From IMG/VR virus record IMGVR_UViG_3300037400_003528, positions 1-64,000 of that record: a stretch of DNA of 64,000 nucleotides. One strand, written 5' to 3'. This stretch comes from a virus. The notes beneath the pieces are model-generated. The model did no database searches. It saw only the letters and a list, made by a program, of their open reading frames with translations, and had not been told where the DNA came from. Below are positions 7,895 through 8,429 of the stretch, in pieces. The position numbers and the translations under genes are program-made. Each line of letters starts with the position of its first letter. The stretch's first letter is position 1.

Positions 7895-7932
7895 CAGGGC
7901 TGGCGGGATTTGAACCCACGAATGCAGGAGTT
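7895..7932 (-). tRNA. tRNA-Gln(TTG) 3' exon (anticodon-loop AC through acceptor CAGCCCT-G)
   Basis: AC 3' stem TCCTG, CATTC, T-arm GTGGG-TTCAAAT-CCCGC; near-identical to E. coli tRNA-Gln 3' half. Confidence 0.65.
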
Positions 7933-8394
7933 TGTCAAATCTTACTCTGTAATCTCCTTTATTATTTTTTCAAACTCATAATCTTTTGCCCAAGTAATTG
8001 TACATTGATTACCTTTATTTTTTGTTTTTAATCGAAGTATCTTAGTTTTTTTATTTCCTAATTCAACAGGAAATAAATAACTTTTATCTTTAAAAACAAT
8101 ATAATAATAATCAATTTCATTTTTAGTATAACTATGAACAGTTTTACTATTCCAATTAGTTGAACAACATAAAAATGAAAATGCACTTTCTTCTTCGTCG
8201 TAAGCTGCTCCAGTTTTACATTGAATTCTTAGTAATTTACCATTTATATCAACAATATAATCATATCTACTATCTGATGTAATTGGTTTTGAAACTATAA
8301 AACCCATTTTACTAAAATCTAATTCACACTGTAACTCTGTAAGTAAGCCTTTTTTTGTATTTTCTTGCATTTTTTTATATAGAGTTCGATTTAA
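7933..8394 (-). mobile_element. 462-nt intervening sequence in tRNA-Gln anticodon loop (after G36), almost entirely the endonuclease ORF
   Basis: tRNA exons flank exactly; intron type (group I?) undetermined. Confidence 0.55.
7942..8370 (-). CDS. PD-(D/E)XK-type putative homing endonuclease (motif TELQC..D..D..IQCK); ATG start at 8370
   Basis: paralog of 10091-10729; D-x(n)-D/E-x-K pattern; ORF track used a TTG start. Confidence 0.55.
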   Translation of the reverse strand: MQENTKKGLLTELQCELDFSKMGFIVSKPITSDSRYDYIVDINGKLLRIQCKTGAAYDEEESAFSFLCCSTNWNSKTVHSYTKNEIDYYYIVFKDKSYLFPVELGNKKTKILRLKTKNKGNQCTITWAKDYEFEKIIKEITE

Positions 8395-8429
8395 CAAAGT
8401 CCTGTGCCTTACCGCTTGGCGACAGCCCT
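8395..8429 (-). tRNA. tRNA-Gln(TTG) 5' exon (AGGGCTG-TC-GCCAAGCGGTAAGGC-A-CAGGA-CTTTG)
   Basis: matches E. coli tRNA-Gln D-arm GCCAAGCGGTAAGGC; pairs with 3' exon acceptor. Confidence 0.65.

Follow-up and report, generated by a model that had tools for sequence, protein, structure and literature searches.

In the textbook account, the introns in tRNA genes of bacteria and phages are self-splicing introns of group I or, rarely, group II, and protein-dependent tRNA splicing belongs to the archaea and eukaryotes. The subject of the current report is an interrupted tRNA-Gln(UUG) gene on the minus strand of 64,000 nucleotides (nt) of viral DNA (positions 1 to 64,000 of the IMG/VR record IMGVR_UViG_3300037400_003528, a stretch that we refer to as "the window"), in which a homing-endonuclease gene is inserted between tRNA nt 36 and 37. 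Its closest described counterparts are group I introns of bacterial tRNA genes, such as the 655-nt tRNA-fMet intron of Synechocystis PCC 6803 with its open reading frame (ORF) of 150 amino acids (aa) (PMC1995217) and the introns bearing the Pfam domain PF11645 that have been reported in bacterial tRNA-fMet and tRNA-Arg(UCU) genes (PMC13011429). A review of 2014 found all of the phage introns then known in protein genes, despite the many tRNA genes that phages carry (PMC3984707); the family of phage tRNA introns described below contradicts its conclusion that tRNA genes are spared by phage introns. Endonucleases of this family and mobile introns in tRNA anticodon loops are already known, and we found no report in the literature of a ribozyme-free tRNA intron in bacterial viruses with a helix like the one described here and the 36/37 position. 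With a probability that we would put at about one half, we propose that the insertion is a mobile tRNA intron without a ribozyme, an endonuclease cassette at 36/37 that is removed from the transcript by protein enzymes.

The phage intron shares with I-Ssp6803I and the group I introns of tRNA-fMet genes the family of its endonuclease, its location in a tRNA anticodon loop, a presumed capacity for homing and presence/absence polymorphism among close relatives. Introns of the I-Ssp6803I type, however, are 625-655 nt long and contain a group I core of ~200 nt that lies 3' of the ORF and is detectable with Rfam, those in fMet genes being located at 33/34, whereas the phage intron is 463 nt long with 34 nt of non-coding sequence, lies at 36/37, lacks a core as well as U-1 and omega-G at its splice sites, and forms a terminal helix in which the anticodon takes part. 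It resembles the mobile introns of archaea (LAGLIDADG ORF, bulge-helix-bulge, EndA, RtcB) in being composed of an ORF and short exon-pairing ends with no ribozyme, in the pairing of anticodon with intron, and in the presence of an RtcB-type ligase in at least one carrier phage (EFP01, see below). It differs from them in being found in viruses of bacteria, in having its splice sites 3 bp apart in a continuous helix, in its position at 36/37 rather than 37/38, and in that no EndA was seen among the window ORFs that were scanned. The SegB protein of phage T4 is a free-standing homing endonuclease of a phage tRNA cluster; the phage intron gene is like genes of this type in that a homing endonuclease directed at phage tRNA genes rides in a tRNA array, and unlike them in that it sits inside a tRNA gene and has evolved ends that pair with the exons. 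The intervening sequences of bacterial 23S rRNA are removed by RNase III without religation, which leaves a fragmented rRNA. In the SOS splicing of DNA transposons from animal mRNAs, it is RtcB that does the joining (PMC12779559). As in both of these systems, the ends of the phage insert pair into a helix of the kind that marks an insert for excision from RNA. In contrast to the 23S rRNA case, a nick in the anticodon loop of a tRNA would need to be ligated and the 3-nt stagger of the phage helix is not that of RNase III, and SOS splicing is a system of animals.

The 5' exon of the interrupted gene (tRNA nt 1-36, positions 8395-8429, minus strand) reads AGGGCTG TC GCC AAGCGGTAA GGC A CAGGA CTTTG from 8429 to 8395 (uninterrupted, AGGGCTGTCGCCAAGCGGTAAGGCACAGGACTTTG) and ends with the anticodon, as C32 U33 U34 U35 G36. 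The 3' exon (nt 37-73, positions 7895-7931, minus strand) reads AC TCCTG CATTC GTGGG TTCAAAT CCCGC CAGCCCT G from 7931 to 7895 (uninterrupted, ACTCCTGCATTCGTGGGTTCAAATCCCGCCAGCCCTG) and comprises A37 and C38, the 3' strand of the anticodon stem, the variable loop, the T arm, the 3' strand of the acceptor stem and G73 at 7895. Between them, at 7932-8394 on the same strand, are 463 nt with a GC content of 24%. A first-pass annotation of this DNA was correct in splitting a tRNA-Gln(UUG) after nt 36, and its expectation that the halves form a cloverleaf is borne out, but it began the 3' half at 7932 and counted 462 nt of insertion. It took no account of the long helix between intron ends and anticodon, of the second interrupted gene at 10032-10797 or of the large family to which the intron belongs, all of which are described below. 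The one extra A in those coordinates gives an anticodon loop of 8 nt in ARAGORN, while the corrected junction yields a joined product that ARAGORN, at default settings, calls tRNA-Gln(ttg) with a loop of 7 nt. The read expected across the exon-exon junction, derived from the sequence, is ...GGCACAGGACUUUGACUCCUGCAUUCGUGGGUUCAAAUCCCGCCAGCCCU.

Several placements of the junction yield a 7-nt loop, and the intron mode of ARAGORN prefers Leu(taa) with a 463-nt intron. This ambiguity is resolved at 36/37 because the joined 31-nt anticodon arm GGTAAGGCACAGGACTTTGACTCCTGCATTC has exact matches in 117 intron-less stretches of phage DNA in IMG/VR and because every relative that was examined obeys the same position. 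About 80 of these stretches were fetched, and all read as full-length sequences of the tRNA-Gln(UUG) type, whose only differences from the window are paired changes in the acceptor and T stems; positions 8-48 of the window tRNA-Gln are identical to those of many intron-less phage tRNA-Gln genes. The alternative junctions, which would specify Leu(UAA), Leu(CAA) or an ochre suppressor with UUA, are ruled out by the tRNA body, which is of class I and of Gln type with a short variable loop and G73, and by the occurrence of the CUUUGAC arm in the intron-less stretches. For the window's own target site, intron-less arms were found only in other phages; an exact search of IMG/VR with the window's own 5' junction gave no match, and a megablast search of annotated phages with the split-tRNA region detected no relative. 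Proteins encoded at the edges of the window, looked up with a view to extending the contig, likewise led to nothing.

The same arrangement is widespread in related phages. A profile of 23 homologues of the endonuclease led to 78 loci in IMG/VR (the relatives are designated by L and a number where they need to be told apart), and in ~66 of these the intron mode of ARAGORN finds a split tRNA around the endonuclease gene; 50 loci pass a strict, hand-built cloverleaf test. When the exons were joined, ARAGORN called a tRNA with the expected anticodon in 44 of 44 cases, and the insertion lies between nt 36 and 37 in all 43 distinct hairpins that were compared position by position. Nine types of tRNA are represented: Gln UUG, Glu UUC, Lys UUU, Thr UGU, Arg UCU, Asn GUU, Pro UGG, Ile GAU and Ser GCU. 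The nearest neighbour of an endonuclease comes from the same tRNA type in 38 of 44 cases, and identity within a type descends to 34-42%; the clustering by type and the divergence within types imply that the arrangement is old. All 43 ORFs are intact, their sole internal stops being TAG codons in TAG-recoding phages. The intron ORFs of L012, L044, L045 and L072 are broken solely by in-frame TAG and would be translated only once the amber suppressor of the phage is active. The carriers are viruses of bacteria, with transfer-messenger RNA (tmRNA) and ROOL RNA in their arrays, lysins of Gram-positive type and an Enterococcus phage among them. In L296 (8357-16300), four PDDEXK_5 and two GIY-YIG genes share one 20-kb array with 23 intact tRNAs. 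At least three of the four PDDEXK_5 genes lie within tRNA genes, those of Asn(GUU), Glu(UUC) and Pro(UGG), which have no intact copy with the same anticodon in the stretch.

The ends of the intron are held together by a helix of which the anticodon is a part. In the window, the 5' strand of this first helix (8388-8398, minus strand) consists of U33 U34 U35 G36 and intron bases 1-7 (UUAAAUC), and its 3' strand (7931-7941, minus strand) consists of GAUUUGA, the last three intron bases CAA, and A37. U33 thus pairs with A37, U34 U35 G36 pair with CAA, and UUAAAUC pairs with GAUUUGA; C32 and C38 form no pair. The helix is continuous and carries one splice site on each strand, 3 bp apart, such that the 5' exon ends in a 3' overhang of 3 nt that is the anticodon itself. 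A second helix pairs ACUCU, within the 5' untranslated stretch of the endonuclease mRNA (8381-8385, minus strand), with AGAGU, composed of the last sense codon and the U of the UAA stop (7944-7948, minus strand); the two A bases of the stop codon sit in a 2x2 internal loop that separates the helices. The first helix is present in the minimum-free-energy fold of a hairpin construct (z -6.9) and in that of the whole 535-nt precursor, where the cloverleaf is kept and the anticodon stem prolonged.

Among the 43 distinct hairpins, the pairs 33:37, 34:last and 35:last-1 are present in all, 36:last-2 in 42, and the first intron pair is of Watson-Crick type in every one, with four types of pair represented. 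Pairing peaks exactly at both junctions; intron bases 2-6 are paired in 70-85% of the hairpins, and an internal loop breaks the helix near base 7. The last three intron bases follow the anticodon from one tRNA type to another (UUG/CAA, UUC/GAA, UUU/AAA, UGU/ACA or AUA, UCU/AGA, and further GUU/AGC, UGG/CUG or CUA, GAU/AUC and GCU/AGC). In an ungapped alignment of 41 hairpins, 90.4% of the cells are paired, and the covariation score is 0.92, against 0.235 after shuffling (none of 500 shuffles reaches 0.92) and 0.11-0.20 for partners slid out of register. G-U pairs number 71 and A-C mismatches 7, and therefore the constraint must bear on the sense-strand RNA rather than on the DNA; judged by these substitutions, the helix is under selection as RNA. 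The equivalent of the second helix in the relatives, formed between the 5' untranslated stretch and the final codons of the ORF, shows many compensatory changes as well.

Little else in the intron is available for RNA structure. The homing-endonuclease ORF (7942-8370, minus strand, stop codon included; 142 aa) occupies 429 of the 463 nt and leaves 24 nt upstream and 10 nt downstream, 34 nt of non-coding sequence in all. It belongs to the I-Ssp6803I/PDDEXK_5 family, as indicated by its match to Pfam PF11645 (81.6 bits against a cut-off of 26.1, E 7e-23) and to its nearest solved relative, I-Ssp6803I (PDB 2OST, E 2.7e-4 over residues 7-104). D37, D41, Q50 and K52 are invariant across the 23 homologues and align with the YD...D...QVK of 2OST, and the description of the insertion as almost nothing but a PD-(D/E)XK ORF is thus upheld. 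The anticodon TTG (8395-8397, minus strand) is in frame with this ORF, and a mechanical ORF list extends it to 151 aa from that TTG; the overlap of an in-frame TTG start with the anticodon is probably a coincidence.

The intron belongs to neither group I nor group II. A scan of 7850-8480 against Rfam at E ≤ 10, covariance models of group I and II introns included, detected no intron or ribozyme family, and no group I or II match was found by Rfam in 23 related phage loci. As controls, the scan included eight tRNA-Met(CAU) introns from Omnitrophota, Planctomycetia and other bacterial genomes, which are 625-647 nt long and carry distant PDDEXK_5 ORFs with the group I core downstream; all eight matched RF00028 at 54-68 bits, with a threshold of 50. 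The non-coding RNA amounts to 5-69 nt in the 43 distinct introns listed, and the greater length of some of them (670-850 nt) is accounted for by longer proteins. Base 36 is U in 28 of them, G in 13 (as in the window) and C in 2, and the last intron base is A in 25 (as in the window), C in 11 and G in 7; no placement of the window junction that has a 7-nt loop supplies both U-1 and omega-G. With its UUAAA start and ACAA end, the window intron has neither the GUGYG...AY ends nor the domain V/VI and reverse-transcriptase ORF of group II. The first-pass annotation had judged that so little non-coding RNA could not hold a conventional group I core, except one that overlapped the ORF. The first part of that judgement holds, given the 34 nt, where a group I intron would have roughly 180-250 nt of structured RNA with covarying internal helices, the empty Rfam scan and splice-site bases that exclude group I. 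The escape clause finds no support: in eight Asn-type introns analysed with RNAalifold, compensatory pairs are confined to the anticodon stem and both terminal helices, while the interior of the ORF, with a GC content of 24-39% across introns, has none.

Other known RNA signals were considered as well. The bulge-helix-bulge motif has two 3-nt bulges 4 bp apart, with the cuts within the bulges; tried by hand on the window, it would need a 30:38 pair and bulges, both of which are absent, and the helix is continuous at both splice sites in 43 of 43 hairpins. The Asn and Lys groups have a conserved internal loop, UGACC...GCUGAUG, that might be read as a hammerhead or K-turn; this reading was set aside, the motif not being shared by the other groups.

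One carrier of such an intron is a cultured phage. Enterococcus phage EFP01 (Schiekvirus, L081) has a 463-nt intron of the same kind in its tRNA-Asn(GUU) gene, annotated in the record only as a hypothetical protein. Besides the two records of EFP01 itself, 29 other Enterococcus phage records match at ≥90% identity. The 23 rows listed among these (22 phages) show 97-98% identity, and in every one the match consists of two pieces that span ~538 bp and make up 54% of the query, as the absence of the 463 bp would predict; most of these rows annotate a tRNA-Asn under the match. The 463-bp gap was confirmed at the base level against EFDG1 only, and it probably extends, judging from the pattern of coverage, to all 29 matching records. 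The joined exons of EFP01 are 100% identical to the tRNA-Asn-GTT of EFDG1, and gp162 of EFP01 is an RtcB RNA ligase (Pfam, E 3e-59).

The tRNA array of the window provides a possible reason for an interrupted tRNA gene to be retained. Its 29 intact tRNAs serve 19 amino acids and leave Gln alone unserved, so that the presence of a split tRNA-Gln is not likely to be a matter of chance. The sole other Gln candidate of the array is a degenerate tRNA-Gln(UUG)-like gene at 19347-19420 (minus strand), which scores 32.5 bits in Rfam (threshold 29), is called by ARAGORN only at a lowered threshold and has mismatches in the acceptor and T stems; the earlier remark on its poor T-stem was therefore sound. 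Decoding of Gln codons with a phage tRNA may plausibly depend on splicing of the interrupted gene, since this is the only well-formed tRNA-Gln beside the 19-amino-acid array.

Much smaller inserts of 31-49 nt, without an ORF, are found in the anticodon loops of neighbouring phage tRNAs. Those of one type have in common the sequence GAGCACA...UGUGUGUUG and include a 40-nt insert in a tRNA-Leu(UAA) (L036, 2178-2301) and a 31-nt insert in a tRNA-Gly(UCC) (L059, 2864-2968), with further examples in L220, L232, L255 and L258. The L036 and L059 inserts are at 36/37, and their junction bases covary with the anticodon, in a register where C32 bulges out and the 3' stagger is 2 nt; no intron-less allele of the tRNA-Gly gene of L059 was recovered in an exact search. 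A second type, of 45-49 nt and with the hairpin loop GGGGCAG(C/U)ACC, occurs at other positions of the anticodon loop (after C32, after U33 and at 35/36) in L032 (386-521, the same as L045 825-960), L076 (3273-3396) and L040 (2557-2678). The Rfam tRNA scores of the inserted genes are 43-50 bits for L036, L059, L040 and L076 and 38.6 bits for L032, and no other family was matched. These inserts fit no known ribozyme class and carry no protein, which favours the involvement of machinery that acts in trans.

The life cycle that we envisage for the intron has a DNA level and an RNA level. By analogy with I-Ssp6803I and from the family of the protein, homing would be driven by the endonuclease: an enzyme of the I-Ssp6803I type would cut intron-less copies of the tRNA gene in co-infecting relatives, and DNA repair would then copy the cassette into the cut gene. 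At the RNA level, the precursor retains its cloverleaf with an extended anticodon stem, in which U33 is paired with A37 and the anticodon with the final three bases of the intron; just upstream of these three lie the partners of intron bases 1 to 6 or 7, and the second helix links the 5' untranslated stretch with the ORF's 3' end. The long helix, whose structure is defined by covariation, might in this way present the splice sites to a protein endonuclease, which we propose because no catalytic RNA can be accommodated. Such an enzyme, encoded by the phage or the host, would read the tRNA body and the helix and cut at both sites, and an RNA ligase, with RtcB as the leading candidate, would seal the nick in the anticodon loop. 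Splicing, which we infer from these sequence patterns, would restore the only good tRNA-Gln of a phage set that otherwise serves 19 amino acids. More tentatively, phages of Gram-positive gut bacteria might carry a whole class of tRNA introns without an RNA catalyst, with endonuclease-bearing members of 450-850 nt at 36/37 and, probably, ORF-less members of 31-49 nt, all spliced by a protein endonuclease and an RtcB-type ligase.

Several known processing enzymes were considered for the cutting step. RNase III, with its 2-nt stagger, would leave an anticodon loop of 6 or 8 nt in the endonuclease-bearing introns and fits only two of the ORF-less mini-inserts; on the acceptor-like 7-bp helix, a cut by RNase Z would fall 2 nt off, and RNase P is conceivable at either site, though nothing supports it. 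Cut-and-paste, or an origin of the anticodon complement by target-site duplication, was also rejected, the overhangs not fitting.

A number of observations weigh against removal of the intron by protein enzymes. We know of no RNA-splicing or processing enzyme that would suit a fully paired helix with a 3-nt 3' stagger; the stagger of RNase III is 2 nt. A scan of ~36 ORFs from the 64-kb window brought up no homologue of RtcB, Rnl or EndA (for six late-gene ORFs, the analysis ended with translation). Phages with many tRNAs commonly have RtcB, which serves repair there, and its presence in EFP01 is therefore not specific. EFP01 is moreover the sole carrier of the intron among ~30 relatives, which looks like a recent invasion and is uninformative with regard to function. 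Homing into fresh, intact genes could keep the exons healthy without any splicing. Finally, a second interrupted gene of the window, similar to tRNA-Ser(UGA) and described below, has an aberrant tRNA body, as would be expected if insertion can inactivate a tRNA.

The main rival explanation, less probable in our estimation but still to be reckoned with, is that the insertion is a purely selfish endonuclease gene which kills the tRNA, that the exons are never rejoined, and that the helix serves the endonuclease mRNA, either as a stalk for RNase III or as a stabilising stem that frees the mRNA from the transcript of the array. Phage tRNAs are often dispensable, and the lone carriage of the intron by EFP01, the decayed look of the Ser-like gene and the lack of a splicing enzyme among the scanned ORFs are all in keeping with such a view. 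The same can be said of free-standing PDDEXK_5 genes that lie directly downstream of an intact tRNA-Asn in a Kuttervirus (Salmonella phage PM10, L289, record positions 102249-102740) and of an intact tRNA-Thr in L294 (10001-10432), from which it follows that the family parasitises tRNA clusters regardless of splicing. But a stalk on an mRNA needs no pairing with exons, and it is bases 33-36 and 37 that are paired most strictly and that follow the anticodon through nine tRNA types. Selfish insertion also leaves unexplained why all 44 interrupted tRNAs are still perfect cloverleaves when their endonucleases have diverged to 34-42% identity, why interrupted genes supply specificities that are otherwise missing from their arrays, and why inserts without an ORF follow the same logic at their junctions.

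It is doubtful, though conceivable, that the splicing endonuclease is the intron-encoded PD-(D/E)XK protein itself. The RNA helix would then mimic the left half and centre of the protein's own DNA target (the anticodon stem and anticodon), and the splice sites would coincide with the cleavage points of the enzyme on DNA, the 3' stagger of 3 nt having the anticodon at its centre. DNA cleavage by I-Ssp6803I has the same 3-nt 3' stagger, and the alpha-4 form of archaeal EndA has the same arrangement of subunits as the I-Ssp6803I tetramer. Top-strand positions 27-36 and their partner in the RNA helix match the duplex of the DNA target except at position 32, and the ORF is intact in 43 of 43 introns, with internal stops only as TAG in TAG-recoding phages. 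Two subunits of the I-Ssp6803I tetramer touch the substrate (PMC3384342), and archaeal EndA is classed in the same PD-(D/E)XK superfamily (PMC3424549). In their right halves, however, the RNA helix and the DNA target are unlike each other, RNA in the A form imitates B-form DNA poorly for an enzyme that reads sequence, and the catalytic residues are those of a metal-dependent DNase, whose chemistry would leave 3'-OH and 5'-P ends that RtcB cannot join. Nor could an Asn- or Pro-specific enzyme serve the ORF-less inserts of the Leu and Gly tRNAs, which use a different register of pairing.

Also unlikely is a cryptic self-splicing ribozyme that overlaps the coding sequence, be it a much-reduced group I-like core or a pair of small self-cleaving motifs. 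The canonical relatives of the endonuclease do live in group I introns, small ribozymes produce ends that RtcB joins, and there are twister-P1- and HDV-like matches in the arrays of L023, L038, L059 and L076. Against these stand the absence of any Rfam ribozyme family over the intron at E ≤ 10, the variable splice-site bases without U-1 and omega-G, an ORF interior that has 24-39% GC and no compensatory pairs, and the lack of a motif common to all of the tRNA-type groups. Excision at the DNA level, whereby the inverted ends would form hairpins or a cruciform that an Hjc-like endonuclease resolves and an intact tRNA gene would be restored in some genomes, is very unlikely: the ends of the intron are indeed inverted repeats and I-Ssp6803I is structurally like the Holliday-junction resolvase Hjc (PMC3384342), but the excess of G-U pairs over A-C mismatches (71 versus 7) points to sense-strand RNA, the arms are ~420 nt apart and, as reasoned from the sequence, staggered cuts would leave non-complementary TTG/TTG overhangs that are unable to religate.

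Removal of the intron by protein enzymes, if true, would be the first enzyme-catalysed pathway of tRNA splicing in the bacterial domain or its viruses, with a signal that differs from the bulge-helix-bulge. Splicing would mean that a new endonuclease-plus-ligase pathway is at work in infected bacteria, would give a concrete biological role to phage RtcB and to the "RNA repair" gene sets beside tRNA arrays, and would bear on how mobile introns can lose their ribozyme. Even if the intron is not spliced, it would be a notable case of an endonuclease gene that evolves exon-specific pairing in RNA. With EFP01 in culture and Enterococcus faecium as its host, the occurrence of splicing can be tested directly. 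Annotation of tRNAs in phage genomes systematically misses interrupted genes of this kind, and ARAGORN in its default mode missed both of those in the window.

The second of these two genes (10032-10797, minus strand; parsed from the sequence and with Pfam) is tRNA-like, with the long variable arm of a Ser(UGA)-like tRNA. Its first exon (10797-10763) and second exon (10080-10032) are separated at 36/37 by 682 nt (10762-10081), the ends of which, CUCAAUC and GAUUGAG, pair over 7 bp, and the ORF within (10091-10729, 212 aa) has PDDEXK_5 and NUMOD1 domains in Pfam. The tRNA body is aberrant, with A8, a weak D stem, G55 and a mismatch of A36 with C, and the joined exons are not recognised by ARAGORN; the gene may be a decaying copy.

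Several genes of the window have a relation to RNA. A Ro-like RNA-binding protein (phrog_850; DUF2828/DUF7788/VWA) is encoded next to the tRNA array (3978-5540, minus strand), and L294 and L295, too, have a Ro-like gene beside the array. There are in addition a nucleotidyltransferase (5960-6748, minus strand), a metallophosphoesterase (30628-31518, minus strand) and an 808-aa protein (27634-30060, minus strand) with matches to the shoulder and repeats of the major vault protein and to SPFH (Band 7). Taken together, these genes resemble the RNA-repair systems known from comparative genomics, though without a visible ligase.

The array contains further features of a different kind. An HNH endonuclease ORF (12548-13174, 208 aa) lies between tRNA-Val and tRNA-Ile, with a fragment resembling a T arm and acceptor, ATGGGTTCAATTCCCATAAGGTCCA, just downstream; no convincing 5' tRNA half and no group I match were found in this region (12340-13300, minus strand). 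A tRNA of 69 nt at 15523-15591 (minus strand; 48 bits in Rfam) is unseen by ARAGORN at default settings and has the anticodon UAA when the threshold is lowered; its short variable loop is unusual for a Leu tRNA. The phage of the window recodes TAG; its late and structural genes (terminase, portal and others, 53688-61289, plus strand) contain 9-21 in-frame TAG codons each, and a suppressor tRNA with the anticodon CUA is located in the array at 11091-11167 (minus strand). A full-length ROOL RNA (14887-15483, minus strand, 279 bits) is likewise inside the array, and ROOL also adjoins interrupted tRNAs in L058, L072 and L084. The related arrays have matches to twister-P1 (L023, 705-770; L076, 1284-1345) and to HDV-like ribozymes (L023, 1071-1128; L038, 2306-2362; L059, 1970-2037), all below the Rfam gathering score, as well as matches to tmRNA (L041, 1000-1422) and to the Y RNA-like YrlA (L059, 532-648).

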